Positions 1-21,486 of a stretch of DNA of 64,000 nucleotides are shown piece after piece. Source of the stretch: Thermoproteota archaeon (GTDB taxonomy: Archaea; Thermoproteota; Thermoprotei_A; EX4484-217-1; JAPDJV01). The notes under the pieces are model-generated. The model did no database searches, was not told where the DNA came from, and saw only the letters and a program-made list of their open reading frames with translations. Position 1 is the stretch's first letter. Each line of letters begins with the position of its first letter. The position numbers and the translations under genes were made by a program. Location of the stretch: NCBI GenBank assembly GCA_029258925.1, contig JAPDJV010000001.1, forward strand, positions 9,885 through 73,884, in the 5' to 3' direction.

Positions 1-93
1 GCAGGGTGAAAGCATTTTCTTGATTAGAAGTCTTGAGAGGGTGTTTCCCAAGGCGATTCTCGTAATCCTCACTATATCCGATTCCAATGACAT
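1..93 (-). CDS. hypothetical protein, N-terminal fragment only (gene continues beyond window start)
   Basis: Reverse strand reads ATG..MSLESDIVRITRIALGNTLSRLLIKKMLSPC open to position 1; not in the ORF track because it is truncated. Confidence 0.15.
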   Translation of the reverse strand, partial: MSLESDIVRITRIALGNTLSRLLIKKMLSPC

Positions 94-198
94 AATCTCT
101 ACCCTCTGTAGCTCGTGCTACATCGAATATTCCTTTTTTGAATATAGAATTTAAACAGCGAATATTTAACTCTTCCCGTAATAGATTGTTTGGAAATG

Positions 199-1374
199 TT
201 AGCTGAAAGTAGACTTGTAGAGAAGCGTTATTGATGCTAGCTGGGTTATAAGAGCGTATAGTGCGGAAATCTCCACAAGCCCGCTGTCCAATAAGAGACC
301 GTAAACGTATCCGCTGACAAGGTATCCGAGACCATAGAGGGAATTGAATATTCCATACGCTGTCCCCCTGACTCCTACTGGAACAGTGTCTGAGACCGCT
401 GCTCTATACGTAGACTCCTGCATTCCAAGTATTATGCCGAAGACTATAGATGCCACTATGATATTCCATAAACCTCCTGTAACAGCTAGTATTGGAGGTA
501 TTATGGACAAGGCGAAGGGGATTACCAGTATTTTCATGCCGAAAACGTCGTACGCATAGCCAGATATGATGGCGGAAACAGCGTCTACAGCTTGAACAAA
601 TAGGTATAGGAGAGGAATAGCCCACGAGGCCATTATTGGGGAAGCCTTATACAATATTAATAGTATGTGGATAAGCCCCAACGTATTGAAGAATACTGCC
701 ATAGTATATATTTTAAATCTTAACGGCAATTTAGCCCCCTTCTCTCCACCCCTAGCAGCGGCACTTGGCACCATTGAAGACGTGTACGTTTTAAGGTTGG
801 AATAGGTGAGTGTTAACACCAGCATTAATATCGCGTAGGGTATTATTAAGACAATGAAGGAGTTACTGTAGTTGCCTGTGACGAGCAATGTTAATGCTAC
901 TATACCCGGTCCTAAAATGGCTCCAATCTGGTCTAGGAGTTCGTGGAGACCGAACGCCTTTCCAGACCCTACACTACTACTTATTACTGAGAGGAGGGTG
1001 TCTCTAGCTGGAGATCTAAGCGCTTTAGCTATTCTCTCCACTAAAATCAATATTATTGCTATTTGCCATAAGTTGGCGAAGGCCAGTAGGGGGATCGACA
1101 CTAGGAGTCCGTAGCCTAGGAAAACTAGGAGCCAATAAGTTCTCTTCACGTCCGCTATGTATCCGCTTACGAGGCGAAGAGCATATCCTAGGAAGTCTCC
1201 TAGACCTCCAACTACTCCTACTACCACAGCAGTTGCCCCAAGGGTTTCGAGGTATGGTGATATTATTCCACGAGCACCCTCATATATGATGTCTCCTAGA
1301 AGGCTTATTAAGCCGAAAGAAATTATCCCCATGTACGCTATTCTCTCCACACTCTTCAAGACAATCCCCTTCAC
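199..1374 (-). CDS. major facilitator superfamily (MFS) transporter
   Basis: 391 aa, highly hydrophobic with about 12 predicted TM segments and a central loop; start overlaps the stop of the upstream PGI/PMI gene (operon). Confidence 0.5.
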   Translation of the reverse strand: MKGIVLKSVERIAYMGIISFGLISLLGDIIYEGARGIISPYLETLGATAVVVGVVGGLGDFLGYALRLVSGYIADVKRTYWLLVFLGYGLLVSIPLLAFANLWQIAIILILVERIAKALRSPARDTLLSVISSSVGSGKAFGLHELLDQIGAILGPGIVALTLLVTGNYSNSFIVLIIPYAILMLVLTLTYSNLKTYTSSMVPSAAARGGEKGAKLPLRFKIYTMAVFFNTLGLIHILLILYKASPIMASWAIPLLYLFVQAVDAVSAIISGYAYDVFGMKILVIPFALSIIPPILAVTGGLWNIIVASIVFGIILGMQESTYRAAVSDTVPVGVRGTAYGIFNSLYGLGYLVSGYVYGLLLDSGLVEISALYALITQLASITLLYKSTFS

Positions 1375-2360
1375 TACAGCACGTTCGAAATAGCCTTCTT
1401 ATACCTCTCTATACTAATCGTTCTTATAGGATCTATCCCCCTCTTCTCAGCTAGCACTATTGATACTAGCCCAGCTATCAGGCTACCATAAACTAATTGG
1501 GATAAAAGATTTTCTCCAATACACTCCAGTACTTCAACTCTAAGTCCAATACTTTTATAGTACTCCGCCGCGTAGTCAAGCATATGGTTAGAGACCTCGT
1601 CTCCCCCTTTTCTAGACCTCAATATTATGGCAGTGTATTCCCTAGAGTAGGGCATCTCCCATCCAACAATATCATTGTGACCCCATTCTGGAACAACTTC
1701 GACTTTCACGGGTATCTTAGAGTTCTCGTTTAGCTCGTTTTTAAATCTTAAAGCAAGAGGATAGTAATCGGTGTAAGATATTATTATCGGCATTTTGCCC
1801 TCAATACTCTCTACAATAGAGTCTACTTTACTCCAGTCAACGGGCCTCCTCAATATATCAATAGAGTCCTTAATGTTCTCTTCCGAAACAATCTCTATAC
1901 TGACTTTGTTTAAAGATCCTAGTACAGAGTACAGCATTGCTGGGAGAGAAGCTCTGGGGACGAGGCCTTTAACTAATGGTATGAATGCCACGTTTTTCTC
2001 GGAAGCCAGCTTCTCTAATGTACCATTTGACGAAAAAGCCAGTATGTTCATTTTCCTCATCAAAGCTTCATTAAAACACTTAATTGTTTCACCAGTATTC
2101 CCAGAATAGCTTATGCAAACTAGCAGGTCTTCCCCAGAAGCCCAGCTTGGAAGTTTATAGTCTTTAACAACTACTACTGGTATATTTAATTGATAGTTTC
2201 CTAGGACTTTGACGTAGTCTCCGATAATACCTGAGCCGCCCATCCCAGCAAAAACGATGCACCTGGGCTTAGGGTATTTAGGGAGATCGATTTCCCTTAC
2301 TATTCTTAAAGCCTCTTCTGCCTGTTTAAACCAGTTCAAATAGATTTCACGCATGCTCAC
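1374..2360 (-). CDS. bifunctional phosphoglucose/phosphomannose isomerase (SIS domain, archaeal PGI/PMI family)
   Basis: 328 aa; N-terminal SIS-fold motif FAGMGGSGIIGD; size and layout typical of crenarchaeal PGI/PMI. Confidence 0.55.
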   Translation of the reverse strand: MSMREIYLNWFKQAEEALRIVREIDLPKYPKPRCIVFAGMGGSGIIGDYVKVLGNYQLNIPVVVVKDYKLPSWASGEDLLVCISYSGNTGETIKCFNEALMRKMNILAFSSNGTLEKLASEKNVAFIPLVKGLVPRASLPAMLYSVLGSLNKVSIEIVSEENIKDSIDILRRPVDWSKVDSIVESIEGKMPIIISYTDYYPLALRFKNELNENSKIPVKVEVVPEWGHNDIVGWEMPYSREYTAIILRSRKGGDEVSNHMLDYAAEYYKSIGLRVEVLECIGENLLSQLVYGSLIAGLVSIVLAEKRGIDPIRTISIERYKKAISNVL

Positions 2361-2452
2361 ACCTTATACTAGAAATAGGAAATGGCCTAGCTATTATATA
2401 TTGTACTACAAAATGATTAATAGAATTACTCCTGAATCGCTACAGATATTTA

Positions 2453-3733
2453 ATGGGATTCAGAGTGTCGTCGTGCTCTCAGCTACTTCCTGGCGAGCTG
2501 GCAATTATAAATATTCTATTTAATATAATGTTATATGGGAATGGTGCTGCTAGAATGCTTGAGGGCATAGCGGAGCTACCATTACATGAAGGCCATGTTC
2601 CACAGTGGTTGATAAGACTTATGAAGAGGCTTTCTAAGGCATTAATAGAGGTTCTTGTAATCGAGTACGGACCTCGTAAAGTTGTTGAGAGGCTCAGTAA
2701 CCCTCTATGGTTTCAGGCGTTCAATAATATCATAGGTATGGACTGGGATAGTAGCGGTTCAACTACTGTGACAACAGGTATTTTAAGAGAGGTTTCATGG
2801 AAGAGTGATCTGGGGATACTTGTTTTGGGAGGTAAGGGTAGGAGAGCTAGGAGGATTCCCGAAGAACTTGAGAGGGCTGTTGAAAAGCTGGGTTTAAGCG
2901 ATGAATATGTTAAACGGTTGAGAGATGTTTCGAGGATAATAGCTAAAGTAGACTCCTCTCTCTTACAAGATGGTTACCAGCTTTACCATCAAGCACTTAT
3001 TTTGTCTGAGGACGGTTCTTGGAGCATAGTACAGCAGGGCATGAACATTGAAGCTAGGATGGCCCGTAGATATCATTGGTTTTCTGAAGGTCTAAGAAGC
3101 CTTGTTGAGGAGCCGCACAGGGGCATTGCATGCAGTAGGAGGGAGAACAGGATTATCAATTTAGTTGCGTCTGAGAGTAGGAGGGTTAGATCAATAATAT
3201 TGGATCTCCTCAAAGAACCCCCACGGAAAACCCTTAATCTCATAGGTGAAGCATACAGGGTGTCCAAAGGATATAGGAGTATTCTTGAGTGGACTACACA
3301 CGCGAGTAAAGTTGTCATATTGAAAAAAGATAGATTAGCCTACTATAAGCCTCTGCCAAACCCCCTCAAACTTAAGGGGATCCTTGAAAGCGCATACGAG
3401 TTGAGACCTAGGAGGCTAGAAGAAGCTCTCCTCATTAAGGGCTTAGGCCCCGAAACTATTAGAGCACTTGCTCTAATATCTGACCTAATATACAGGGAGC
3501 CCCCCTCCTGGAGAGACCCTGCTAACTATCCCTACGACCCATTTAAATACGCATATGCTTTCGGAGGAAAAGACGGGGTACCCTATCCTATTAAAAGGGA
3601 GGAAATGGAGAGGATTCTAGAAATGCTGGAGAAAGCTGTTGATGAGGCCAAGCTTGAGGGAGGAGAGAGATCCATGCTTATTAGGAGGCTTAGGTCCATG
3701 AGAAACAATCTAGAACGTTATGAAAACTGTTGA
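2453..3733 (+). CDS. conserved hypothetical protein (possibly DUF763-like); true start probably internal Met
   Basis: 426 aa soluble ORF, GMDWDSSGSTT motif, Arg/Lys-rich C-terminus; no recognisable catalytic motif. Confidence 0.3.
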   Translation: MGFRVSSCSQLLPGELAIINILFNIMLYGNGAARMLEGIAELPLHEGHVPQWLIRLMKRLSKALIEVLVIEYGPRKVVERLSNPLWFQAFNNIIGMDWDSSGSTTVTTGILREVSWKSDLGILVLGGKGRRARRIPEELERAVEKLGLSDEYVKRLRDVSRIIAKVDSSLLQDGYQLYHQALILSEDGSWSIVQQGMNIEARMARRYHWFSEGLRSLVEEPHRGIACSRRENRIINLVASESRRVRSIILDLLKEPPRKTLNLIGEAYRVSKGYRSILEWTTHASKVVILKKDRLAYYKPLPNPLKLKGILESAYELRPRRLEEALLIKGLGPETIRALALISDLIYREPPSWRDPANYPYDPFKYAYAFGGKDGVPYPIKREEMERILEMLEKAVDEAKLEGGERSMLIRRLRSMRNNLERYENC

Positions 3734-3822
3734 TCCAACATGCAGGCTTTTTGTAGAATTATTATAATTGGATTTCTAGCTTGTGAACAGATTTATATGT
3801 GCTATTGCACGTAATCTAAGCG

Positions 3823-4260
3823 GTGAAACACTTGTATAGAGGTGGACCCGGCAGGGGTATGGGTAGGGGAGGGTGGATCCAACCACCTTCAGGCATGCCC
3901 CAAATACCATTACCCCCAAACACGTATAGGGTAGTTACTACAACAATGGATGATAGGGGAGTGGAGTCACTTATAGCTCAACGCTTTACTAGAGCTCCGT
4001 TCATAATGGTGATCGATATTGTAGATGGTAGAGTGGTCAATGTCCAAGCCTTCTCGAATCAGTTCGCTAATTACCCCAGAGGAGCTGGGATAATGTTTTC
4101 ACAATGGATAGCGTCTATTGGTGCTAGAGCAGTACTAGCTTCAAACGTTGGCCCGAATGCAAGCTACGTTCTCCAGCAGGCTGGCATAGCAGTGCACATA
4201 GTGCCTCCTGGAACAAGAATTATTGATGCTCTAAGAAGTTTAGGCATCGCGAGGATGTAG
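3823..4260 (+). CDS. NifX/NifB-C-terminal-like dinitrogenase FeMo-cofactor-binding domain protein
   Basis: C-terminal ~100 aa (RAPFIMVID..GAGIMFSQWIASIGARAVLASNVGPNASYVLQQAGIAVH) matches the NifX/NafY/NifB-C fold; N-terminal 40 aa Gly/Arg/Pro-rich, so real start may be Met at 3946. Confidence 0.5.
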   Translation: MKHLYRGGPGRGMGRGGWIQPPSGMPQIPLPPNTYRVVTTTMDDRGVESLIAQRFTRAPFIMVIDIVDGRVVNVQAFSNQFANYPRGAGIMFSQWIASIGARAVLASNVGPNASYVLQQAGIAVHIVPPGTRIIDALRSLGIARM

Positions 4261-4264
4261 TTCT

Positions 4265-5149
4265 ATGGAGATCGTTGTAGCAAGCGGTAAAGGTGGAACT
4301 GGTAAAACGTTCGTCTCCTCGAATCTAACTTATTTTTTGAGGTCGCTTGGAGCTAAAGTGGTTGCTGTAGATGCTGATGCAGAAGCCCCGGACCTCCTCC
4401 TAGCCCTGGGAGGAGCTTCCGAGAATGTTTATTCGAGAGAAGTCTATAGGTCGCGTAAAGCTGTAATAGACCACGGGAGATGTGTCTCCTGCATGAAGTG
4501 TTTTGAGACTTGCAGATTCAATGCTATAGAGTTATCCAATGGCAAACCCGTTGTTGTTGAAGAGTACTGTGAGGGATGTGGTGCTTGCAGTATTGTTTGC
4601 CCAAGCAATGCTATAAGCTTTGTAGTTAAACGAACAGGTTTAATCAGCTGCGATGTTTCAAAATATGGAATTAAAGTTGTAACAGCCGATCTGGAAGTTG
4701 GTGGAAGAAATACGGGGGAACTGGTTTACATGGCTAAAGAAGAGGCGCATAGAATTGCTGATAGCGAGGGAGCGAAGTACATTGTTGTGGATGCTGCAGC
4801 GGGCATAGGGTGCCCAGTTATATCCAGCTTAGCTGGAGCAGACATATTGATAGTAGTAGTGGAGCCCTCACCCCAGTCGCTTAAGGGTGCCAGAAGACTC
4901 TTAGAAGTAGCGGAGTCTTTTAGGACAAGAAACCTCCTCATATTAAACAAGTACGATTTAAACCCCAATTTCTCCGAAAAAGTTGCTTCAACACTTGGAA
5001 TAGAGGTTTTAGGTAAAATACCCTACGACTACACTATTGTGAAAGCATATGCTAGCATGACACCATTTTTAGCCTATAGTAGTGGGGGGAGAGCTCTTAA
5101 ACCACTCGTAGAATCCTTTAGAACACTCTATGAAGGTGTTTTAAAGTGA
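4265..5149 (+). CDS. MinD/Mrp-superfamily P-loop ATPase with inserted 2x[4Fe-4S] ferredoxin domain (COG1149-like)
   Basis: Deviant Walker A GKGGTGKT; two CxxCxxCxxxC(P) motifs (CVSCMKCFETC, CEGCGACSIVCP). Confidence 0.7.
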   Translation: MEIVVASGKGGTGKTFVSSNLTYFLRSLGAKVVAVDADAEAPDLLLALGGASENVYSREVYRSRKAVIDHGRCVSCMKCFETCRFNAIELSNGKPVVVEEYCEGCGACSIVCPSNAISFVVKRTGLISCDVSKYGIKVVTADLEVGGRNTGELVYMAKEEAHRIADSEGAKYIVVDAAAGIGCPVISSLAGADILIVVVEPSPQSLKGARRLLEVAESFRTRNLLILNKYDLNPNFSEKVASTLGIEVLGKIPYDYTIVKAYASMTPFLAYSSGGRALKPLVESFRTLYEGVLK

Positions 5150-6021
5150 CAAAGATAATTACTGTTGCCGGGGGGAAGGGTGGGACAGGTAAGACGACGG
5201 TTGCAGTAAACCTGTCTTATCTCCTATCCAAGAGGGGGAAGACGATTTTAGTTGATGCAGATGTGGAGAATCCATGTGTTCCCGCAACTATAGCTGGGAG
5301 GATCGTAGTTAATAGAATTGTTGAAGTTAAAGGCTTTAAACCTGTATTCGATTACGGGAAATGCGTTAAATGCGGTCTATGCGTTGAAAAATGTCCAGAA
5401 CACTCCTTAACTATGCTGCCCAGTGGAAGAATAATTTACTTTGAAACCCTCTGCTCAGGATGTAGTTCATGTATGCTTGTTTGCCCAGCGAACGCTATAT
5501 CTGAAGGTTATAGATTGGAGGGATTGTTTAGGTTTGGAAGAGCCTTAGACACCATGGATGTTATTGTAGGCGAGATCGTTCCGGGCAATAGGAGAAGCGG
5601 AGTTCTCATAGCTAGGTTGATAGAGGAAAACTTGGAAAACTTTCGTAAATACGATTTCGTGGTAATTGATTCCCCTCCTGGAACGTTTGCAGGAGTATAC
5701 TCAACAATAAAACATGCTGAAACAATTCTGGCCGTTACTGAGCCAACACCTTTAGGGGTAAACGATCTGAGGAAATTCATTAAGCTTGCTCGGAAGTACG
5801 GTAAAGAAGACATTAACGTGGTTGTAAATAAGTATGGAATACCGGGAGGTTCATATGAGGAAATAGAGCGCATAGTGGAGGAATTAGGACTCCGATTATT
5901 TAAAATACCTTACAGTAGAATAGTGTTCGATTCTGTAGTGCGGGGAGTACTAGTAGTGGAGGAGTACCCCGAATCCGATGCAGCGAAAAGTATAGAGAGG
6001 CTAGCGCTCGCACTCTCATAA
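5146..6021 (+). CDS. MinD/Mrp-superfamily P-loop ATPase with inserted 2x[4Fe-4S] ferredoxin domain (paralog)
   Basis: GGKGGTGKT Walker A; CVKCGLCVEKCP and CSGCSSCMLVCP; start GTG overlaps upstream stop (GTGA), translational coupling. Confidence 0.7.
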   Translation: MTKIITVAGGKGGTGKTTVAVNLSYLLSKRGKTILVDADVENPCVPATIAGRIVVNRIVEVKGFKPVFDYGKCVKCGLCVEKCPEHSLTMLPSGRIIYFETLCSGCSSCMLVCPANAISEGYRLEGLFRFGRALDTMDVIVGEIVPGNRRSGVLIARLIEENLENFRKYDFVVIDSPPGTFAGVYSTIKHAETILAVTEPTPLGVNDLRKFIKLARKYGKEDINVVVNKYGIPGGSYEEIERIVEELGLRLFKIPYSRIVFDSVVRGVLVVEEYPESDAAKSIERLALALS

Positions 6022-6152
6022 GTAGCTTGAAACATATATTCCAGTAAAACTGCTATTAGCAATGGTTAAAGGAGGTGCTGGACCGAGTAAAATACTCCAT
6101 GGATTACTTGCGGCAAGCTCTCTATAAAGAGAGCAATGTCTAAAATGTCCTC

Positions 6153-6413
6153 TCAAATGTTTTCGCCAACTAGCACCTCAAATACTGGCGGGTTCTCAGC
6201 AACTATTTTAACACTTAAACCCTTTTTCCTAGCTATAACTCTTATAGTTTCCACAGGGATCCTCCTAGAATCCGTGATAACTTTTATGATTTCCCCTTTC
6301 CTGAGAGTCTTAACAGCTTTCTTTAGCCTTACTAGAGGGTGTTCCGTACATCCTGGGGGAGGCCTCCTTAAATCTATTATAATAATTTCCTCTTCCAATG
6401 GAGAAGTTTCCAT
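6153..6413 (-). CDS. TusA-like sulfurtransferase / sulfur-carrier protein (variant Cys motif)
   Basis: 86 aa; IDLRRPPPGCTEHPLVRLKKAVKTL aligns with TusA LDxRGLxCPxP..kk; C-x-x-x-P instead of CPxP. Confidence 0.5.
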   Translation of the reverse strand: METSPLEEEIIIIDLRRPPPGCTEHPLVRLKKAVKTLRKGEIIKVITDSRRIPVETIRVIARKKGLSVKIVAENPPVFEVLVGENI

Positions 6414-6416
6414 CGC

Positions 6417-6914
6417 CTACTCACTCCCCATTCTCTTATACATTAACTCCACGATCCTCTCCTCCCCTAACGCCTGTAATTCTTCTCTTGTAAGTTTCTC
6501 GGGAAGCCATTTAGACTTGACCTCTCTACTCTTATAGTATTCTCTAATAGCTCTTCTAAGCGCTCCAACTGCTAGTATGCCGCAGTGATACTTTATTGAG
6601 GGTAATCCGCCTAGTTCATCGGATACGTTTTTCCATGAAATATTCCATGCTTCTTCAAGGCTTAATCCCTTTATCATCTCGGTTAGAATGCTGGCTGTAG
6701 CTATGTTAGCTGCACAACCATAACTCTCGAAAGACGCTCTAACAACTGTTTCCTTCCCATCATCTATTTTCAAATATATTGCTATCATGTCTCCGCATGC
6801 AGGGCTACCTGCAATAGCTTTCACGGAGGCATCATCCATGTAACCCATGTTCTTGGGGTTCCTGAACAACTCTATTATTTTATGTGAGTGCGGTAAAGGT
6901 ATTCTAGTGGACAT
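6417..6914 (-). CDS. iscU: Fe-S cluster assembly scaffold IscU/NifU-N-terminal-like
   Basis: FRNPKNMG..GSPACGDMI..FESYGCAANIATASILTEMIKGLSLEEA..YHCGILAVGALRRAI follows the IscU consensus including the three ligand Cys; ~35 aa C-terminal extension. Confidence 0.75.
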   Translation of the reverse strand: MSTRIPLPHSHKIIELFRNPKNMGYMDDASVKAIAGSPACGDMIAIYLKIDDGKETVVRASFESYGCAANIATASILTEMIKGLSLEEAWNISWKNVSDELGGLPSIKYHCGILAVGALRRAIREYYKSREVKSKWLPEKLTREELQALGEERIVELMYKRMGSE

Positions 6915-8139
6915 TCTTGGCCCTCCTTGGCTTTATTGAGCTTATCCTCCTTAACCTATTAATTGATTCTTGTAACACCTTCAAAGTATACTCCACGTCC
7001 TCGGGGCTATGATATCTAGAAAGTTTGAACAGTATGCTTCCATGGGCCTCCTCGTGTCTCCTACCTATGGCTAAGAGGGCGTGGCTTGGTTCTAAGACTC
7101 TACTCGTGCAAGCACTCCCGCTCGAAACATATATTCCGTTAAGGCTTAACTCGATTGTTATAGCCTCTCCCTCAACATATAGGAAACTGACGTTGAGATT
7201 ATCTACAACTCTCTTCTCCCCTAATAGTCCGTTTACGAGTACTTCCTGAATTTCATCGAGTATCCCATTCAATAGCCTTTCTCTAAGCTCTTTAACATAA
7301 GTTACCTGCTTATTGAAGTCCCTGTAAACAAGCTCGGCAGCTTTATGGAACCCCACTATAGATGGTACATTCTCTACTCCCAGCCAAAGCGTTTGAGTGC
7401 TCAGTGCTCCATGGATTATTTTCTCGACTTTAACTCCATTTCTCACATATAGTGCACCTGCGCCTTTAGAAGCCAGTATTTTATGGTTGCTTAAAGTTAG
7501 CATGTCGACTCCAAGATCCTCAACGTTTATTGGAATCCTGCAATAGGCGTCAGCTGCATCAGTGTGAATAAGGGTTTGGGGATTAATTTCTTTAACAATT
7601 CTGCTTATCTCTCTCAAAGGCTGAATTGAACCTATTTCGTGGTTTACCAGTTGAATGCTGACTAGTACAGTGTCTTTGTCTATGAGTATTTCAAGAATAT
7701 CTAGGTCCACTATTCCTTCTTCGTCCACAGGTACTTGAACCACTTTAAAGCCCAGTTGTTCCAGACTATTTGCCGGTAAGAGTACACTGAAGTGTTCTAT
7801 GGCTGAGATAATTACCTTTCACTTCTTCCCTCCAATAGTGCTTCCAATTATTGCGAGATTATTCACCTCAGTACCACTATGTGTGAAGAATATTTCATCT
7901 GGTGAAGCATTTATGCTGCTTGCAATGAACTCTCTTGCTTCTAATAGAGCTTCAAGAGCCTCCCATCCCGGTTTATGAGTTATGGATGGATGACCATATC
8001 CTCTCTCATTGAAATACAGTATCATAGCTTCCAATACTTCCCTAGGAACCCATCCACTATTTTCCAGGTCGTAGTATACTTCCCTCGTAGGCTTTCCATG
8101 AACTCTCAATAACTCCCTTATCTTAGCTGACTCACTCAT
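6904..8139 (-). pseudogene. iscS: cysteine desulfurase IscS/NifS family interrupted by a single in-frame TGA (at 7819..7821)
   Basis: ORFs 7819..8139 (N-term, ..TEVNNLAIIGSTIGGKK*) and 6904..7743 (..LSNHKILASKGAGALYVR.., SGSACTS) are in the same frame; the stop-free reading KK*KVIISAIEHFSVL aligns with IscS KKGKHIITSKTEHKAVL, the TGA falling on a conserved Gly. Confidence 0.65.
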
Positions 8140-8211
8140 AAAATTATCTCTACTCGAATATACATATATAACACTGTTACAAATATCTTTCTAAGAGGAG
8201 GTACAGGAATA

Positions 8212-9447
8212 TTGGCTTTAAACCCTCATTTAATTAGAAGAGACTTCCCCATCTTAAATAGGAAAATCTACGGGAAGAAAATAATCTACTTGGATAATGC
8301 TGCAACATCTCAAAAACCATTACAGGTCATCAACGCTATTAAAAAATTCTATGAGACAAATAACGCGAACATACATAGAGGCGTACATAAGTTAAGCGAT
8401 GAAGCAACAGACTTATACGAGAAAGCTCGGGAGACTGTAGCCTCCTTCATAAATGCCGAGAAGTCTGAGAACATTGTCTTCGTTAGAAATACTACTGAGG
8501 CATTGAACTTAGTTGCATATTCCTGGGGCTTATTTAATGTTAATCCAGGCGATGAAATAGTTTTATCTATCATGGAACACCACAGCAACATGCTTCCGTG
8601 GATCAAACTTGCCGAAGTGAGGAACGCAGTAATTAAAATAGTCGATGTTGACGATTATGGAAGGCTCTCCATTGATGATCTAGAGGAAAAAATAACCGAG
8701 AAAACAAAGCTTGTGGCGATAACCCACATGTCAAACGTTACTGGGGTAATAAACGACGTAAAGAAAGTTACTAGAATAGCCAAGAGGCGGGGGGCAGTAG
8801 TGGTCGTCGATGGAGCACAAAGCGTGCCGCACATGCCAGTCGACGTTAGGAATATTGGAGCAGACTTCATGGCTTTCAGCGGCCACAAAATGCTTGGCCC
8901 AACTGGGATAGGAGTACTATATGTGAGTGAGGAGAGACTTAATGAAATGAACTGTTTTCTAACTGGTGGAGGAGTGATAAAGGAGGTGCACTACGTTAAT
9001 GGAGGGATAAGCGTTAAATGGGCTGAGCCACCATGGCTTCTCGAGGCTGGCACACCTAATATAGCGGGAGCAGTTGGCCTAATGGAGGCAGTCAACTACC
9101 TTAGGAGTGTGGGATTGGAGAACATTAGAAGGCATGAAATTGAACTAGTAAAACACTTACTTGACAGGTTTGCAGACGAGTTCAAAAACATACGTTTATG
9201 CGGTCCCCTAGATATTGTGGATAGGGGTGGAATAGTATCTTTCACTATAGGCTTATTCGATCCCCACAGCACAGCTATATTCCTAGACAGTGAGGGAATA
9301 GCTGTTAGAAGCGGCTTCCATTGTGCACAGCCACTGCACGAAAAGCTAGGATTTACTAGGGGAAGTGTTAGGGCAAGCTTCTACATATATAATACTGTGG
9401 AAGAAGTTGATTTTCTAGTTGAAGCATTGAAGAGAATTGTCCAGTGA
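8212..9447 (+). CDS. SufS/CsdA-type (class V aminotransferase fold) cysteine desulfurase
   Basis: 411 aa; N-terminal RRDFPIL..IYLDNAATSQKP, PLP-lysine context FSGHKMLGPTGIGVLYV, C-terminal GFHCAQP..RASFYIYNT typical of SufS group II. Confidence 0.7.
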   Translation: MALNPHLIRRDFPILNRKIYGKKIIYLDNAATSQKPLQVINAIKKFYETNNANIHRGVHKLSDEATDLYEKARETVASFINAEKSENIVFVRNTTEALNLVAYSWGLFNVNPGDEIVLSIMEHHSNMLPWIKLAEVRNAVIKIVDVDDYGRLSIDDLEEKITEKTKLVAITHMSNVTGVINDVKKVTRIAKRRGAVVVVDGAQSVPHMPVDVRNIGADFMAFSGHKMLGPTGIGVLYVSEERLNEMNCFLTGGGVIKEVHYVNGGISVKWAEPPWLLEAGTPNIAGAVGLMEAVNYLRSVGLENIRRHEIELVKHLLDRFADEFKNIRLCGPLDIVDRGGIVSFTIGLFDPHSTAIFLDSEGIAVRSGFHCAQPLHEKLGFTRGSVRASFYIYNTVEEVDFLVEALKRIVQ

Positions 9448-9494
9448 ACTCTAAGCTTTATATTTGAGTATAACACTGTTATATAGGGTTAGAA

Positions 9495-10441
9495 ATGAAA
9501 GCTGTTAAACAGAGAGCTAAGAGTGTTTCCAAACACCCTATCCCTGCTCGTAGATAACTGGCCAACACGCTTGTTAGGCTTGAAACAGAGTCGCATGGAG
9601 GTAAAGAGGTTTGGGCAAAGCTGGAATGCTATAATCCATTTAGTAAGAGCATAAAAGGATAGAGCAGTATGGGGTATGGTATTGAAGATGTTGGAGAAGA
9701 GGAGTCTAACAGAGGTCGTTATGGAGGCTACCTCAGGAAATGTGGGATTATCTCTTTTAAGCATTTGTAACATTCTAGGATTAAAATTCACTGCATTCAT
9801 TTTCTCGACAACTCCTCAAGCAACTGAGACACTCTTGAAGACTTTCGGAGCAAATGTTATCAGAACAAACTATGAAACAATAAACCAGGAGTTCTGGAGA
9901 GAGGTCCAAGAGTATGCCGAGAGTACTGGTGCCATCAATTTAAATCAATTCGAAAACGATGCAAACTTCGAAATCCACTACAATACTACAGCAGTGGAAA
10001 TATTGAAACAGTTGGAATCCATAGGTAGGAAACCGGACTATGTTTTTGCTGGAATAGGAACATCAGGGCATATAGCAGCTATTACTAAGAGAATTAGAGA
10101 GCGCTATGGTGGGAATGTGAGAGTTATAGGTGTTCAACCAGCTAGAGGATGCTCTATTCCTGGAATCAAGAGGGTTGAAACTAAGCCTAAGTGGATAAGG
10201 TGTGTGAGCGTAGATGAAGTGGTTGATGTAAGTAGAGCCGAAGCCATTGAGGGTACCATAGATTTGGCTATTAGGGAGGGTATATGTTGGTTTGAGCTCT
10301 GGAGCAGTCTATTCAGCCTACAAGAAGAAAGCCGGTATTAGGGGAACCTGTGTTCTAGTGTTTCCAGATGATGCTTTCAAATACGTTGAAGTATTCGAGG
10401 AATACTTGGCTCTTTCCAGACACCGCTTAGGTTTCAAGTGA
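9495..10441 (+). pseudogene. cysteine synthase / O-acetylserine (O-phosphoserine) sulfhydrylase family (PALP) pseudogene with three lesions
   Basis: Three frames give LANTLVRLETESHGGKEVWAKLECYNPFSKSIK / DRAVWGMV..TSGNVGLSL.. / IVGLSSGAVYSAYKKKAGIRGTCVLVFPDDAFKYVE, all cysteine-synthase hallmarks; in-frame TAA at 9555, +1 shift near 9655, +1 shift near 10285. Confidence 0.6.
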
Positions 10442-12030: not shown

Positions 12031-12468
12031 TTACTCGCTCAATATTATCTCGGTAAGGTAGTCTATTAGCTCTCTTATAGCATCCTTATTGATCTCGTAC
12101 ATTCTTATCTTCTTATAGCTCCTACACTTCACTATACCTAGACTCCTCATTAAGGCTAGGTGGTGGGAGATTAGGGTGCAGTCCTTATTCAGTATTCCTG
12201 CTATCACACATACACAGTGCGGTCTCCTCATAACTGCGAGCATTTTCAGTCTCAAGGGATTAGACAAACACTTCATCAGTAAAGCCGCTTTCTCCAACTT
12301 CTTATTTGAGGGCACCACTATTTCTTCCTCTAATCTATCCTCGTACGAGGATATTACATCCTCATGGTTCTTATAGTTTATTAATACGTCTTTCACCTTC
12401 AATATCATACCCTCCCCACCCAGTGTAGCCAATGAAATTCTTTTAAACATTTCACCACATTTACCCAT
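12031..12468 (-). CDS. ArsR/SmtB-family winged-helix transcriptional regulator
   Basis: 145 aa; LSNPLRLKMLAVM..CVCVIAGILNKDCTLISHHLALMRSLGIV matches the ArsR HTH (CVC metal-site-like); only 7 nt upstream of pyrF. Confidence 0.55.
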   Translation of the reverse strand: MGKCGEMFKRISLATLGGEGMILKVKDVLINYKNHEDVISSYEDRLEEEIVVPSNKKLEKAALLMKCLSNPLRLKMLAVMRRPHCVCVIAGILNKDCTLISHHLALMRSLGIVKCRSYKKIRMYEINKDAIRELIDYLTEIILSE

Positions 12469-12550
12469 GGTCGATCACGTAAGTCTTAAAAGGAGAATCC
12501 ATTACTTTGTAATGTTGATCAACAACCATGCTGCTTGCGGTGTATGATTA

Positions 12551-13690
12551 TTGAAGGAGAGAGTGTTGATAGTCGATCCCATTAGGAGCGGTGGTGTAGT
12601 ACCTGAGAGTGTGAAGAGAAGTCTTCTGGAATATTTGAATGGCTACTCTGTTTGCATGTACTGTCCAGGAGATTTACACAAAATAACTAAACCAAATATT
12701 AAGAGACTTATTCAAGTAGATCTCCCGGAGTTCATGGGGGCAGATGTTGTGAGACTAGTGCACGGTGCGAGAGAAGCATTTTTCACAGTATTCTACGCCT
12801 TATTCAAGGAACATGTTTTGACGCGGGGTGATAGGGCCCCAGTTATAGTTGTTGATGGAAATACACATTACTCTCTGGAGCTCGCGGCAGAGAGGTCTCT
12901 TCTGAAAATTATTGAAACGGAGACTTCTGGTTATCCATTGTTCAAAGTTGGTCTAGAACATTATGAGGAGGCTTTAGAGTCTGTTGTGGAGGAACACGGT
13001 AAGCCCCCTCTCGTAACATGCATAACATATCCCGATGGAAAATACGGTAACTTCCCCGATAACATTAAGGGAATAATTAAATTAGCGAGGGAACATGGTA
13101 GCTATACTCTAATCAACGCAGCTTACTCCATTGGAAGAATGCCCGTGAGCTTAAGGGATCTTGAAGCAGACTTCATCGTTGGGTCGGCACACAAGTCTAT
13201 GGCGTGTTCAGGACCCTTGGGAGTACTTGGAATGAGGGAGGAAGCGGCAAGTTTAGTATTGAAGAGAAGTGTTCGCCATCCATCAAAGGAAGTAGAGTTG
13301 CTTGGCTGTACCGTTAGAGGTCTGCCTGCAGTATGCCTCATCATGGTAATGCCTTATCTGAGGAGGAGAGTTAAGGAGTGGGAGAGAGTAGTCGATCTAG
13401 CTAGATACTTCTACGAGAGAGCTGAGAGAGAGCTGGGGTTAATGCTTTTGGGAGAGAAACCACATAGCCATGACCTACTTCACTTCGAAACACCTGCTTT
13501 CTACAAGATTTCCCTAAAACTGAGAGACAGGTTTTTCTTATACAAAGAGTTGAAGAAGAGAGGCATTATTGGAGTTAAGCCTGGAATAACGAAGAGAATT
13601 AAATTGAGTACTTACCTACTTAATAGGGAAGAGGTAGACTACGTTCTAGACAGTCTAAGAGAAATATTGGAGTTAGGTGAAGGTGACTAA
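12551..13690 (+). CDS. O-phospho-L-seryl-tRNA(Cys):Cys-tRNA synthase (SepCysS), PLP-dependent
   Basis: 379 aa fold-type I PLP enzyme; CxxC near residues 35/38 (CMYC), PLP-Lys in SAHKSMAC followed by a Cys, the conserved trio described for SepCysS; immediately upstream of and overlapping a SepRS-like gene; TTG start. Confidence 0.6.
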   Translation: MKERVLIVDPIRSGGVVPESVKRSLLEYLNGYSVCMYCPGDLHKITKPNIKRLIQVDLPEFMGADVVRLVHGAREAFFTVFYALFKEHVLTRGDRAPVIVVDGNTHYSLELAAERSLLKIIETETSGYPLFKVGLEHYEEALESVVEEHGKPPLVTCITYPDGKYGNFPDNIKGIIKLAREHGSYTLINAAYSIGRMPVSLRDLEADFIVGSAHKSMACSGPLGVLGMREEAASLVLKRSVRHPSKEVELLGCTVRGLPAVCLIMVMPYLRRRVKEWERVVDLARYFYERAERELGLMLLGEKPHSHDLLHFETPAFYKISLKLRDRFFLYKELKKRGIIGVKPGITKRIKLSTYLLNREEVDYVLDSLREILELGEGD

Positions 13691-15215
13691 TGTGAAACTT
13701 GATATCCAAAGAATTCTAAGAGACTTGGATAAAGAAGAGTTCACTACGGTTTGGGGAAATTATTCTGAAATAATTCCTAGAAAAGGAGGCAAATTAAAGC
13801 TTCCTGAGACCGAGGGCAAGCCCAGCATACTGTTAGAAGTGCTCTTCAAAGTTAGGAAAGCGCTTCTGAACTTAGGGTTCGAGGAAGTGGTCAATCCAAT
13901 ATTCATAGATTCCTCTGAAGTATATCGCCAATATGGTCCTGAAGCCCCTATAATACTTGACAGAATATACTTTCTAGCAGATCTCCCAAGACCAGACATA
14001 GGGTTAGATAAGAAGACCGTTGAGAAAATTAAAGCGATCTCCCAGAACATAAATTTGAGAGTACTTCAAGCAGTTCTGAGGGAGTACAAGGAGAGGAAAA
14101 TAAGTTCTGATGACCTCGTAGGCGAGTTGAAGAAGAGACTACATATTGAAGACCACGAAGCTCTCAAAATACTCGAACTTTTCGAACCCCTAATAAAGCT
14201 CACCCCAATACCGTCATCTCTAACTCTGAGATCCCATATGACTGGAGCCTGGTTTTCTACAATATCGGAAATCTTGGAGTGGAGAGATCCCCCACTATAC
14301 CTATTCTCAATAGACTGGGTTTTCAGGAGGGAACAAAGAGTTGATGAATCCCACCTAAAGTATTATCATTCAGCCTCCATAGTTGTAGTTGATGAGGATC
14401 TTAGTGATGATATAGCTCACAGCTTGACTAGGATAGTGCTAGAGAAAATAGGTTTCAAGAAGTTCAAGACAGTGTTGAAAGATGATACAGCAAGATATTA
14501 TGCCAAGGGCAGGGAGTGGGAGGTATATTTAGATTTCATGGGTGAAGAATATGAGGTTGGAACTTACGGACTATACTCTCCAATATCCCTAGCAAAATAC
14601 GGCATACCCTACCCAGTCTACAACTTCGGTATAGGCTTAGAGAGGCTGGCTCAGGTCATAGTTGGTGAGAGAGATATTAGGAGAATCCTTTTCCCATACA
14701 AATACTTTAAGCTCAGCGATCAAGAAATAGCGGAGCGCATAAAGCCCTTAAGGAGGCCGGAGACGTCTAAGGGAAAACATATCGAGAGAGTGCTGCTGGA
14801 AAAAATATGGGAGCTAAAGGATAAAATTGGTCCATTCAAGGAAAAAATCTACGAGGATGAAGATGTTACGATATTCCTGTGGGAACCAGATCCTAAGCCG
14901 TATGCTGGTAAAGCAACTTTCAACAAGATCTATGTTAAGGACGGGGGCATTATCAGTAGCATAGAGGATATAAGCGGAGTGTACATTGGCCGCTATGTGG
15001 ACTTTATAGTTAAAATGATAGCGTCAAGTATTGAGAGAGGGTTCAGGGGAGTTATTAGGGTTAAGTGGGCTAATGGTCCCTCGGACATAAACGTGCATAT
15101 TCCAAGTAAGATAGTGAAATACATTAACACTATTGGTGGGAGAATAGATATTAAAGGACCTGTGTTTGTAGATGTGATAGTAGAGGACTCTACTAAAGAA
15201 AAGCTCAAAACATAA
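13677..15215 (+). CDS. O-phosphoseryl-tRNA synthetase (SepRS), class II aaRS related to PheRS alpha
   Basis: 512 aa; class II motif 3 GIGLERLAQVIVGERDIRRILFPY located mid-protein and followed by ~180 aa C-terminal domain, the SepRS layout rather than PheRS; 14-nt overlap with SepCysS. Confidence 0.55.
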   Translation: MKVTNVKLDIQRILRDLDKEEFTTVWGNYSEIIPRKGGKLKLPETEGKPSILLEVLFKVRKALLNLGFEEVVNPIFIDSSEVYRQYGPEAPIILDRIYFLADLPRPDIGLDKKTVEKIKAISQNINLRVLQAVLREYKERKISSDDLVGELKKRLHIEDHEALKILELFEPLIKLTPIPSSLTLRSHMTGAWFSTISEILEWRDPPLYLFSIDWVFRREQRVDESHLKYYHSASIVVVDEDLSDDIAHSLTRIVLEKIGFKKFKTVLKDDTARYYAKGREWEVYLDFMGEEYEVGTYGLYSPISLAKYGIPYPVYNFGIGLERLAQVIVGERDIRRILFPYKYFKLSDQEIAERIKPLRRPETSKGKHIERVLLEKIWELKDKIGPFKEKIYEDEDVTIFLWEPDPKPYAGKATFNKIYVKDGGIISSIEDISGVYIGRYVDFIVKMIASSIERGFRGVIRVKWANGPSDINVHIPSKIVKYINTIGGRIDIKGPVFVDVIVEDSTKEKLKT

Positions 15216-15271
15216 TACTTTTATCGATTTCAGTTAACAAGTAGTTAGCACGATTTCAGATTATTGAGCAG

Positions 15272-15958
15272 ATGGTGTCCATGATAGTAGACCTCCACGT
15301 CCACACAAAATTTTCAGATGGACTAATGTCACCTAGGGAAGTATTGAAGATAGCTAGGAGAATAGGTCTTTCAGGAGTAGCTATAACAGATCATGATACC
15401 GTAGATGGGTGCCTAGAGGCTATTAGAGCTAACGTGAGTGGAGATCTGTTAGTCGTTCCCGGAATAGAAGTTTCAACGCCTAGCGGCCATATTTTAGTGT
15501 ACGGTTTACATGAAGCTCCGAGAAAAAATGTGAGTGTTGAAGAACTCATCGACTACGCTAGATCCCAAGGTGCAGTGACGGCACTAGCCCACCCCTTTGG
15601 AAAAGTGTTCTTCGGAAAATATCCAATAGTTGACTCGGAGATCGTCGAGAGGCTTGACTTGATTGAGGGGATTAATGGGAGAATTCCTATGGTGAGCAAT
15701 AGGAAAGCTATAGCTTTAGCCCTCGCCTACGGGAAACCCGCGATAGGGGGGAGTGATGCTCATATTCCCGAGGAACTGGGAACTGCTGCAACATATCTCT
15801 TAGAGAACTGCGAGAATGTCGACGATTTTCTAGTCACTTTAAGGAAGGGTTTATGTAGACCTATTGGGAACACGAGTTTCACAAATATTTTGGGTGGAGT
15901 AGTTAGGAGATTTTATAGGAGAGTTCTCCTAACACTCAATATTATAACCCTCCGTTGA
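15272..15958 (+). CDS. PHP-domain metal-dependent phosphoesterase
   Basis: 228 aa; N-terminal VDLHVHTKFSDG, ITDHDTVDG, later His/Asp residues of the PHP fold. Confidence 0.6.
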   Translation: MVSMIVDLHVHTKFSDGLMSPREVLKIARRIGLSGVAITDHDTVDGCLEAIRANVSGDLLVVPGIEVSTPSGHILVYGLHEAPRKNVSVEELIDYARSQGAVTALAHPFGKVFFGKYPIVDSEIVERLDLIEGINGRIPMVSNRKAIALALAYGKPAIGGSDAHIPEELGTAATYLLENCENVDDFLVTLRKGLCRPIGNTSFTNILGGVVRRFYRRVLLTLNIITLR

Positions 15959-15986
15959 AATAATTATCCTAGTATAAGTCGAGTAG

Positions 15987-17114
15987 GTGGATGTGATAAC
16001 TTTGACCTGGATTTACCTGAGACCTGATGCAATAAGTGTTTGGGAGAACAGTGAGGTTAGAGATAGACTTTCCTGGTATTACAGGGTTATGAGAGATTTG
16101 GCTCCAGCCAGATTCATAATATGCAAGCATATTCCAGTTGAACAGGATCCCTCCTCCCTCAGCGTAGAAGAATTGTGGAAGCAGCACGATAAGGCTGCAG
16201 AAGAGTTTTGGAAAATATATCGCGAAATAGATTCAGGCGAAATGAAACTGGAGGAGTTGGAGAAGCCTAAGTGGAGTCTCCTAGACGTTAAAGCCGAGCT
16301 AGCTAAGAGGATCATCGAATCTTGTAGGCTATGTGAGCATAGATGCGGAGTTAATAGGCTTAAGGGGGAGAGAGGATTTTGCAGACTCTCTTCCGAGACA
16401 ATAGTTGACTCCTGGTTCCTACATTACGGAGAAGAAGCCCCCCTGGTCCCCAGCGGGACAATATTTTATGGAAGCTGTAATTTTAGATGCGTTTTCTGCC
16501 AAAACTATATGATATCCCAGGTGAAGCCGTTCGATGGTATTGTAGTTGATGAAAAACAGTTGGCCCTAATGCAGGAGGAGTTGAGGAGAAAGGGTGCTAG
16601 GAACATAAACCATGTTGGAGGAGAGCCAACTCCCCACCTTCACACGATAATCTCTTCAATGAAGCACTTAGATGAGAATACTCCTCAACTCTGGAATAGC
16701 AACATGTACTGTAGCGTTGAGGCAATGAAGCTGTTACTGGAGGTCATCGACATATGGCTACCTGACTTAAAGTACGGTAATAACAATTGTGCAAGTAGAC
16801 TTTCAGGCATCAAGGGTTACTGGGAGATTGCATCAAGGAATATTAAGATGGCCCACGACCACGGAGACATAATTATAAGACACCTAGTCTTACCGAATCA
16901 TCTTGAGTGCTGCACTAGACCAATTCTGGAGTGGATTTCAAAGAATTGTCCAAGATCCCTAGTAAACGTTATGGAGCAGTATAGACCAATGTACCTCGTA
17001 CCAAGGTATCCCGACAAATACAAGGACATTGCTAGACCTCTTAAAGCAGATGAGATCAAAGAAGCGTATAAGATCGCCGAGGAATTGGGCATAGTATTCG
17101 AGCCAGTAAGCTAA
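15987..17114 (+). CDS. radical SAM enzyme, PFL-activase-like (AmmeMemoRadiSam-type)
   Basis: 375 aa; N-terminal Cys cluster CRLCEHRCGVN..GFCRL then canonical CNFRCVFCQN (CxxxCxxC) radical SAM motif. Confidence 0.55.
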   Translation: MDVITLTWIYLRPDAISVWENSEVRDRLSWYYRVMRDLAPARFIICKHIPVEQDPSSLSVEELWKQHDKAAEEFWKIYREIDSGEMKLEELEKPKWSLLDVKAELAKRIIESCRLCEHRCGVNRLKGERGFCRLSSETIVDSWFLHYGEEAPLVPSGTIFYGSCNFRCVFCQNYMISQVKPFDGIVVDEKQLALMQEELRRKGARNINHVGGEPTPHLHTIISSMKHLDENTPQLWNSNMYCSVEAMKLLLEVIDIWLPDLKYGNNNCASRLSGIKGYWEIASRNIKMAHDHGDIIIRHLVLPNHLECCTRPILEWISKNCPRSLVNVMEQYRPMYLVPRYPDKYKDIARPLKADEIKEAYKIAEELGIVFEPVS

Positions 17115-17122
17115 GGTGATAT

Positions 17123-17338
17123 TTGGAGATGGGGGAAATAACCATAGTTTTTTCGCCGGGAGGAGAGAAGAGAAGAATAGTGGTAGATGAATCGATGAGA
17201 GTCAGAGAACTCCTAAAAACGCTGCTTTTAGATGAGGAAAGCGTTGTAGTTGTTAGGGGGGATGAGGTATTAACTGAGGACAGAGTAGTTAGACCTGGAG
17301 AAATACTAACAGTTTTCAACGTTATGTCTGGAGGCTGA
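17123..17338 (+). CDS. ThiS/MoaD-family ubiquitin-like sulfur-carrier protein (SAMP/TtuB-like), C-terminal Gly-Gly
   Basis: 71 aa, ends ..VFNVMSGG-stop; beta-grasp size; directly upstream of TtuA/NcsA gene. Confidence 0.6.
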   Translation: MEMGEITIVFSPGGEKRRIVVDESMRVRELLKTLLLDEESVVVVRGDEVLTEDRVVRPGEILTVFNVMSGG

Positions 17339-17341
17339 AAA

Positions 17342-18301
17342 TTGAAATGTAAATATTGTAATGGAAAAGCTGTAATATATGTTAGGAGAACAAGGACACC
17401 GCTCTGCCCCAGCCACCTAGAAGAATACCTCATAAAAAATGTGGTAAAAGTCTTCAAGCACTATAGAATAGACTTGTCAAATAAGAAGATATTGATAGCG
17501 TTATCTGGCGGTAAAGATAGTTCAACTATGGCGAGTTTAATGAAGAAGCTTTCTGAAGTAGAAGACTTTGAGGTTGTCGGATTATACATCGACCTCGGCA
17601 TACCAAAATATTCTGATTACAGCTTGAAAGCTGTAGAAAAACTTTCGAGAAGCCTCGATCTAGAAGTTAGAACAATAAATCTTAGGGAAGCCTTAGGCTT
17701 CAATATTTCCGATACCGGATTTAAGAGGAGGACTATTTGTAGTGCATGTGGAATAATAAAGAGGTATCTAATGAATTATGCTGCATTAGTCGATGGTTGC
17801 CAGATCATAGCGACTGGGCACACTTTAGACGACATAACAGCCTACATTCTCAAATCCTACATAACACAGGATCTGAAAAGTCTCGTAAAGTTAGGCGTCT
17901 ACAATCCGCCTTTAAACAAGCTTATCCCCGGAAAAGTTAAGCCCCTCGGATACGTAAGTGAGAAAGAAAGTTTAGTTTACGTGTTATCATCGAATTACCC
18001 CTTCTACCATGAGGAGTGCCCATACGTCTCCCATGAAACCATAGAATTCCAAGCAAAGAGATTTCTCAACATGGTTGAAGCCAAGCATCCAGGCATAAAA
18101 CTTTACATGCTTAGAGAATACGAGAAAAATAGGCAATTATACGAGAAGCTGGTGGAGTACCCACCACTAAGGAGATGTAAAATATGTGGTATGCCTTCTC
18201 AAAGAGAAGTTTGCTCTTTTTGCAGCATAGTAAAGAGAATTACTGGAAGCTATGATAGCGTTCTAAAAATGTGGGAGAATAATTTTCTCAGAATCATTTA
18301 A
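17342..18301 (+). CDS. tRNA 2-thiolation PP-loop ATPase, TtuA/NcsA (Ncs6/Ctu1) family
   Basis: 319 aa; N-terminal CxxC..C..H zinc finger, PP-loop SGGKDS, C-terminal CKICG..CSFCS zinc finger. Confidence 0.7.
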   Translation: MKCKYCNGKAVIYVRRTRTPLCPSHLEEYLIKNVVKVFKHYRIDLSNKKILIALSGGKDSSTMASLMKKLSEVEDFEVVGLYIDLGIPKYSDYSLKAVEKLSRSLDLEVRTINLREALGFNISDTGFKRRTICSACGIIKRYLMNYAALVDGCQIIATGHTLDDITAYILKSYITQDLKSLVKLGVYNPPLNKLIPGKVKPLGYVSEKESLVYVLSSNYPFYHEECPYVSHETIEFQAKRFLNMVEAKHPGIKLYMLREYEKNRQLYEKLVEYPPLRRCKICGMPSQREVCSFCSIVKRITGSYDSVLKMWENNFLRII

Positions 18302-18346
18302 ATTCTCAAAAACATTACAGAGACCTAAGATTTTAGGTGATCAGAT

Positions 18347-19597
18347 ATGGTCGACTACAAGGTTAAAGATATTAGACTAGCAGACGAGGGAAGGAGGCTT
18401 ATAGAATGGGCTGAAACACTTATGCCGGTCCTCATGAGCATAAGAAGGAGGCTTAAAGAAAAAAAGCCTTTAGAGGGCTTAAAGATAGCGGCATGCCTAC
18501 ACGTAACAAAGGAGACCGCCGTCTTAGTTAGAACACTTAGAAGCGGTGGAGCACAAGTATCGCTTGCGGCAAGCAACCCTCTTTCAACACAGGACGAGGT
18601 TGCAGCAGCACTGGCCGATGAGGGTTTTAGAGTATACGCTTGGAGGGGAGAGAACAAGGAGGAATACTTCTGGTGTATAAGGAAGATACTTGAAGTTGAA
18701 CCCAGCATAGTTCTAGATGATGGCGGAGATCTCCATGTCCTCGTTCACAGGGAATTCCCCGATCTAGCAGAGAGGATCCTAGGTGGCACAGAGGAAACCA
18801 CTACAGGTATTGTAAGACTAAGGTCTATGGAGAGGGAGGGAGTTCTAAAATACCCTGTCATAGCAGTAAACAATGCTCTAACGAAGTTCTTATTTGATAA
18901 TCGCTATGGGACAGGGCAAAGTAGCATAGACGGAATAATAAGGGCAACAAACATTCTCATCGCTGGAAAAAGAGTAGTAGTTGCAGGTTACGGATGGGTT
19001 GGCAGGGGGATAGCTATGAGGGCCAGAGGTATGGGGGCTCACGTAATAGTTACAGAGGTGAACCCCATAAGGGCGCTAGAGGCATTCATGGACGGCTTCG
19101 AAGTAATGAGCATGGAGGAGGCAGCTAGAATTGGAGACGTGTTCATAACAGCAACAGGCAACATTAAAGTCATAGATCGCCAGCACATAGAGTTAATGAA
19201 GGATGGTGCAATATTGGCTAACGCAGGACACTTTAACGTTGAAATAAACATAGATGCGCTCGAATCCCTAGCTTCCAGTAAGAGAATTGTAAGAAGAAAT
19301 GTTGAGGAATACGTGCTTAAAGATGGAAGGAGAATATATCTTTTAGCTGAGGGAAGACTAGTAAACCTGGTTGCAGCCGAGGGACACCCAAGCGAAGTAA
19401 TGGATCTATCCTTCTCAAACCAGGCGTTATCAGTAGAATACTTGAAGAAGAGCAGCGGATTATTAAGTGCAAAACTACACAATGTTCCGAGCGAAATAGA
19501 TGAAATGGTTGCGAAAATAAAGCTGGAGTCTCTAGGGATAAAAATTGATGAGCTCACAGAGGAGCAGAGGAAGTATCTGGAAAGCTGGATTATTTAA
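18347..19597 (+). CDS. ahcY: S-adenosyl-L-homocysteine hydrolase
   Basis: 416 aa; DYKVKDI..LAD, NAD-binding [10 protein letters not shown], archaeal short form. Confidence 0.85.
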
Positions 19598-19645
19598 TGC
19601 AACAACTCTATGTGGCCTCTCTTGCTCCAATGCCCCATGTATCGG

Positions 19646-20143: not shown

Positions 20144-20359
20144 TTCTAGTCAGCCTCCACAATCTGAATAATACAGTCACATATAGACTGCTTATAAGCT
20201 GTTTTCCCCATAATTTAATTATAAATCTTTCAGGAGTTTGCAGAATTCACTGCGATCCGTAAATGAACGTTCATGTTATTTCTCAAGAAAATGACTTTTC
20301 CCGTCAACACGTGGAGGAAGTGATGACACGCACAGCTCTCGCTTTAAATATTATCTTAA

Positions 20360-21202: not shown

Positions 21203-21486
21203 TTAGATAAACCGATATTAATTAAGCATTTCCTAAATTATATTAATTAGAATTATATTGATTAGCTGAAGAATCAGTACTGTTAAGTCAAAAGACTAGC
21301 ATTCGAAACCAGAGCTCTGAGCAATTTCAAGCATAAAGAATTTCTTAATTTTAAACATGTCCAATACTACTATTTGCTATCGTGCTTTCTCTCTGCATTA
21401 ACCGTAATTCTTTAATTAACTCCTTCACTATTTCCCTTCGCATACTAAAAGATGAGGCTAGAAGACTTGCTAGATACTTTTCATTA

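Follow-up and report, generated by a model that had tools for sequence, protein, structure and literature searches.

The iscS gene on the minus strand of the analysed window (the whole stretch of 64,000 nucleotides studied here) is interrupted by a premature TGA, which we consider, with a probability of around three in four, to be a real and very recent loss-of-function nonsense allele of a dispensable gene, carried by one population of an uncultured archaeon of heat vents. Positions 8139..6904 of the minus strand form a single iscS frame of 412 codons whose sole internal stop is the TGA at 7821..7819, corresponding to codon 107. The ORF at 8139..7819 (106 amino acids plus TGA) and the stop-free stretch at 7818..6904 share this frame, as shown by the ORF list and the frame translation and as had been described in a previous examination of these letters (hereafter the sequence-only reading). 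Codons 1-106 (7822..8139), predicted to be translated as an N-terminal fragment, include THSGTEVNN and lack His116, Lys220, and Cys344; these three residues are carried by codons 108-411 (6904..7818, TAG stop included), as the His of AIEH, the PLP lysine of SNHK, and the catalytic Cys of SGSAC. Only by read-through of the UGA would this second part now be translated. The region 6904..8139 should be annotated as one iscS pseudogene or nonsense allele, neither as two genes nor as a candidate for recoding.

With the stop masked, the 411-residue product matched the Pfam profile PF00266 (Aminotran_5) at residues 21-383, covering profile positions 1-369 of 371 (E = 4.9e-58, 197.3 bits), so that a single unbroken match to the full-length class-V aminotransferase fold ran across the stop position. 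The best NCBIfam matches corresponded to NifS (TIGR03402, 371 bits vs. a cutoff of 530.75) and then to IscS (TIGR02006, 321.7 bits vs. a cutoff of 643.2), the equivalog cutoff being reached in neither case; judged by these profiles, the product is a member of the family and no curated equivalog of the bacterial enzymes. Among solved structures the best match was IscS2 of Archaeoglobus fulgidus (4EB5/4EB7/4HVK, and the D199K variant 4R5F; E ~1e-93), colinear over residues 21-402. The proposal that the stop-free product is colinear with IscS was thus borne out, the full-length protein being however of 411 amino acids and not of about 385 as had been estimated. Downstream of the stop, H116 in AIEH aligned with AVEH of A. 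fulgidus IscS, K220 in LSNHK with its position 199 (K in 4R5F, D in 4EB5), and C344 in the catalytic loop SSGSACTS with STGSACSS. The SSGSAC catalytic loop and the gene pairing with iscU are common to both proteins. In A. fulgidus IscS the place of the PLP lysine is naturally taken by Asp199, and the protein has no desulfurase activity (PMC7585200), whereas the protein described here keeps this lysine (SNHK, K220) and its window allele is truncated at residue 106. From these aligned residues, the intact allele looks catalytically competent. The fold family (PF00266), the conserved His, the PLP-Lys, the catalytic Cys, and the location upstream of iscU are also shared with the type I enzymes E. 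coli IscS and Azotobacter NifS; unlike these, the gene belongs here to a minimal iscS-iscU-tusA operon, without hscBA or fdx, and its copy in the window bears a nonsense codon.

Among the matches listed, about 120 homologues with 59-70% identity were all uninterrupted and mostly 404-417 amino acids long, the closest ones in that list (approximately 68-70% identity) coming from Thermoprotei and Desulfurococcaceae MAGs. In the alignment of 119 homologues the loop varied in length at the position of the stop, and the column aligned with it was mostly Gly; in A. fulgidus IscS, the counterpart of codon 107 was the K-G-K loop Gly, directly before the strand bearing the conserved His. The stop falls on a position that is mostly Gly, in agreement with the sequence-only reading. 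A search of the read-through protein against GTDB species representatives matched no more than two loci, both bacterial and distant (41 and 34% identity), thus indicating that the species, or its iscS, is absent from that representative collection.

The strongest evidence on the origin of the TGA came from contigs of the same species. The 90% protein cluster of the C-terminal fragment contained a member of 411 amino acids (P0123) equal to the read-through product at all residues and with Gly at position 107. Its sources were a 51-kb Logan contig from SRR21024894 (L004) and an ENA contig (ERZ25515408; L005), that is, two other samples, and the DNA of both presented GGA where the window has TGA: base 7821 of the plus strand is C in the conspecific contigs and A in the window, equivalent to G vs. 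T on the coding strand. The single G to T change from GGA that had been postulated from the window was therefore literally correct, and the frame broken at codon 107 in the window is whole in the two conspecific contigs. Over 13,236 aligned bp, L004 differed from the window in one substitution (GGA/TGA) and in two indels of 1 nt, of which the first affects a G run at approximately 5090 and the second an intergenic site at 2365. As two other samples of the species show GGA, the TGA is the derived state, reached by changing one base, and no conserved recoding site; the comparison with relatives, which had been suggested as a check, gave conspecifics with GGA at codon 107 and uninterrupted homologues. 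The order of haplotypes deduced from SNPs (a sister lineage represented by contigs L006 and L007, then L005, which has two variants in common with them, then L004, and finally the window) placed the TGA on the terminal branch, as would be expected of a recent real mutation. Another ENA contig (ERZ25515786; L010, positions 1..8982) was 100% identical to positions 12465..21446 of the window over 8,982 bp, this indicating a population nearly clonal across samples. In the look-ups of the protein collection, the 106-residue N-terminal fragment had no record, the IscU query returned only the L004 contig, and a C-terminal product of 268 amino acids was counted on a second contig besides the one shown (at least one contig). 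Altogether, TGA was found in one run (SRR22064146) and in the deposited contig, and GGA in two samples and in the frameshifted sister lineage.

A different explanation of the same base would be an artefact of sequencing or consensus, the organism having GGA and the T being a read error of one run or a promoted minority variant. The difference is of a single base and G was found in every other sample; moreover, the two indels of 1 nt between the window and L004 imply small errors in at least one of the assemblies, or else real microvariation, and other genes of the window, such as that of an M20 peptidase, also appear broken. Against this, two contigs of the Logan assembly of SRR22064146 (L003 and L009) matched the window at 100% identity over 3,985 and 3,885 bases, respectively, including the TGA and a run of six G. 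The same base was thus obtained with two different assemblers, and the TGA is not the artefact of one of them, although both assemblies bearing it probably come from one run and share reads, and are hence not independent of an artefact at the read level. Substitution errors seldom persist in the consensus of contigs 20-124 kb long. In addition, the broken PALP gene located beyond sufS, where the lesions could be checked, was broken identically in the independent sample L004, which indicates that disruptions here are real rather than noise, and iscS itself was disrupted independently in another lineage. We regard an artefact as unlikely on this evidence, although it is the most serious competitor of a genuine mutation. 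The order given by the sequence-only reading (nonsense mutation or pseudogene first, then base-call error, and finally read-through) is supported by the GGA of the conspecifics and by the second assembly.

The lineage with an independently disrupted iscS was represented by L006 (ENA ERZ1742239) and L007 (IMG 3300014911, one of two Guaymas Basin metagenomes in PMC6478937), which shared 98.8% identity with the window and did not differ from each other within iscS. Both are low-coverage contigs (approximately 2.9x for L006) and may derive from the same read set. Positions 493..1728 of L006 and 844..2079 of L007 match window positions 8139..6904 and keep GGA at codon 107. Three indels (+3, -4, and +1) were present, with a net change of 0, the length of the gene being again exactly 1236 nt: ATG is duplicated after codon 38 (window position approximately 8026), 4 nt are missing from CATCCATCCAT at codons 50-51 (approximately 7989-7992), leading to a stop after 52 residues, and 1 nt is inserted at codon 195 (approximately 7556). 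Codons 51-195 are in consequence out of frame and the gene is split into three called ORFs. Given that this lineage inactivated iscS independently by frameshifts, selection on the gene appears to be weak in this species. Differences between lineages amounted to seven nonsynonymous and three synonymous changes in iscS, and were nonsynonymous in four out of four cases in a short stretch of sufS; the dN/dS ratio was rejected as a sign of relaxed selection on iscS, the flanking sufS showing only nonsynonymous changes too and the counts being tiny. Scanning JGI metagenomes with a 25-mer that spans the stop and has its variable base set to N retrieved only the contig already known (L007, the same as L008).

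Leaky or programmed read-through of the UGA, by which a near-cognate or suppressor tRNA would decode codon 107 and yield some full-length, possibly active IscS, is very improbable. In its favour, the stop occupies a site in a surface loop whose length varies, at which an exchanged residue would probably do little harm, and the remainder of the gene is undamaged and the same as in the intact allele; an undamaged remainder is, however, equally expected of a very recent mutation. The stop is not conserved, the conspecifics having GGA and the homologues a sense codon (about 120 among the matches listed, 119 of them aligned). No stimulatory context was apparent either: folding of 131 nt around and downstream of the UGA was no better than that of shuffled controls (z = +0.63), the Rfam scan of the window, SECIS included, gave no family at gathering score, and no tRNA was found by a tRNA scan of the window. 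Stop-codon read-through in archaea has been demonstrated for selenocysteine and pyrrolysine only (PMC8211752, PMC8037382). If it were true, partial read-through would represent a natural case in an archaeon involving neither selenocysteine nor pyrrolysine, with a reduced amount of active full-length IscS. The gene fucA1 of Sulfolobus solfataricus is also an archaeal gene seen as two ORFs in the genome sequence, and it is expressed by programmed -1 frameshifting (PMC1616953). In contrast with fucA1, which has a slippery site and demonstrated expression, the iscS described here is interrupted by an in-frame stop that its conspecifics do not have, and no recoding signal accompanies it.

It is scarcely credible that the 106-residue peptide and a re-initiated C-terminal fragment form an active split desulfurase. 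The two pieces are ORFs free of stops, and gene finders call each as a gene of its own, but the first start-type codon after the TGA is the GTG at codon 133 (7743), without GGAGG ahead of it and already beyond His116, so that residues 108-132, including this conserved His, would be missing and a two-piece enzyme is implausible. No split architecture was found in the relatives among the matches listed, and the conspecific gene is unsplit.

The weakest possibility, a recoded UGA (selenocysteine at codon 107, or an amino acid genome-wide, for example the Gly of code 25 or the Trp of code 4), superficially resembles the UGA = Gly of code 25 in that a Gly is replaced, but it is effectively refuted: TGA ends 18 of the 60 long non-overlapping ORFs of the window, among them full-length sufS and a Gly-Gly-terminated ubiquitin-like protein, no other conserved gene with an in-frame TGA was found in the 64 kb, no SECIS was matched, and the same species writes this Gly as GGA. 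Selenocysteine replaces a catalytic Cys and not a loop Gly, and codon 107 is Gly in the conspecific and mostly Gly in the homologues. The claim that TGA is a genuine stop elsewhere, for which 5147 had been cited, is confirmed by the stop at 5147..5149. The ubiquitin-like protein is a ThiS/MoaD-like product of 71 residues ending in ...SGG-TGA (17336..17338), with a TtuA-like gene immediately following, and for its function a free Gly-Gly end is needed. This locus (17126..18301, plus strand), in which a same-frame TtuA-like tRNA 2-sulfurtransferase (NF049949, 231.6 bits, below cutoff) starts one codon after the gene of the ubiquitin-like protein, was rejected as a TGA-interrupted gene and is a pair of sulfur carrier and enzyme. 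Other same-frame ORF pairs separated by one stop corresponded to antisense noise or adjacent genes.

Returning to the preferred reading, a recent nonsense mutation, the ancestral state is an intact iscS of 411 codons heading the iscS-iscU-tusA operon. A change of C to A at plus-strand position 7821 (G to T on the coding strand) turned GGA (Gly107) into UGA, which acts here as an ordinary stop. As judged from the alignment and from knowledge of the family, ribosomes would release a peptide of 106 residues without His116, Lys220, and the persulfide-forming Cys344, and the loss of these residues implies that no desulfurase would be obtained from the window iscS. The C-terminal part would not be made, no usable restart being present before codon 133. 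The scaffold gene iscU (NifU_N, 165 amino acids; 6417..6914, minus strand), which overlaps the 3' end of iscS by 11 nt and provides the IscU/NifU pairing typical of the family, has kept its own Shine-Dalgarno sequence (GGAGG, 7 nt upstream of the ATG) and is probably still translatable. The last gene of the operon, identified by profile search, encodes a tusA-like sulfur carrier of 86 amino acids (6153..6413, minus strand). A TATA-like TTATATAT is located approximately 33 nt upstream of the iscS ATG, and its position suggests that the transcript is leaderless or has a short leader.

The operon is divergent from an intact sufS, from which iscS is separated by an intergenic region of 72 bp (8140..8211). 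This SufS-type (type II) cysteine desulfurase of 411 amino acids (8212..9447, plus strand; TIGR01979, 538.5 bits vs. a cutoff of 475.1) ends in TGA, and its start at 8212 agrees well with the distance of 70 bp reported before. It is likely the functional back-up for the lost IscS; SufBC was not found in the 64-kb window. The loss would be tolerated owing to this intact SufS encoded 72 bp away, and also to the capacity of anaerobic archaea of sulfidic habitats to make Fe-S clusters from sulfide without IscS. Tolerance through redundancy, already advanced by the sequence-only reading, gains support from the double-frameshift allele of the sister lineage and from the intact adjacent SufS. In Methanosarcina acetivorans, deletion of iscSU2 left growth and Fe-S content normal, and Methanococcales have no desulfurases and use sulfide (PMC7585200). 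The minimal iscSU clusters of M. acetivorans are likewise archaeal two-gene ISC cores, and the iscSU2 deletion illustrates dispensability where other routes exist. That deletion was nevertheless engineered, and the methanogen has three paralogous clusters, whereas here a nonsense polymorphism arose naturally in a Thermoproteota-like archaeon that has a single iscSU with sufS beside it. Whether the three alleles (intact, nonsense, and double frameshift) record an ongoing loss of the ISC desulfurase in an archaeon of sulfide habitats is, in our estimation, evenly balanced. The locus offers a small but clear illustration of independent knockouts of one cysteine desulfurase gene among nearly clonal populations of an archaeon not yet cultured, in keeping with the accepted notion that IscS matters little to anaerobic archaea of sulfidic environments. 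Neither the type of event nor the gene family is new, and no new question arises; only the visibility of three iscS alleles across near-clonal environmental populations is mildly notable.

Beyond sufS, a CysK/CysM-like PALP pseudogene (9470..10441, plus strand) presented at least three lesions: a stop in frame immediately ahead of LANTLVRL, one A too many in a run of A at the codon of the PLP lysine (SIK|DR, position approximately 9650), and a frameshift close to 10290-10300. After reconstruction, its protein matched TIGR01136 (cysKM) with 170 bits. The gene was broken in every assembly covering it, and the lesions were identical in those of SRR22064146 (L003) and SRR21024894 (L004), this indicating genuine gene decay at this sulfur locus. 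Near this dead cysteine synthase-like gene, genes of the tRNA-dependent cysteine pathway overlap in an operon at 12551..15215 (plus strand), namely those of SepCysS (TIGR02539, 424.8 bits, above cutoff) and of a SepRS-like protein (TIGR00470, 371 bits, just under the cutoff of 380.65). These genes, like the decay of the PALP gene, count among the grounds on which a loss of iscS is plausible.

On the other side, the iscSU-tusA operon is adjoined at 3823..6021 (plus strand) by the gene of a small Nitro_FeMo-Co (NifX/NifB-like) protein followed by those of two P-loop MinD/ParA proteins, paralogues in tandem that have 2x[4Fe-4S] ferredoxin domains inserted; these products may be Fe-S carrier or delivery proteins. 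The G run at 5085..5090 (plus strand; approximately 9051 in L004) has six G in the window and in SRR22064146 and seven in SRR21024894, reflecting either polymorphism or error. The G6 version gives a MinD/ParA-ferredoxin protein of 294 amino acids, whose TGA overlaps the GTG of the next gene, and the G7 version a product of 278 amino acids; as the C-terminus resembles that of the adjacent paralogue, the G6 version present in the window looks like the intact form. Farther along the window, a gene of an M20-family peptidase (42616..43970, minus strand) is apparently split by a frameshift near 43385-43400, with the N-terminal part of Peptidase_M20 encoded by the ORF at 43398..43970 and M20_dimer by the ORF at 42616..43356, in another frame.
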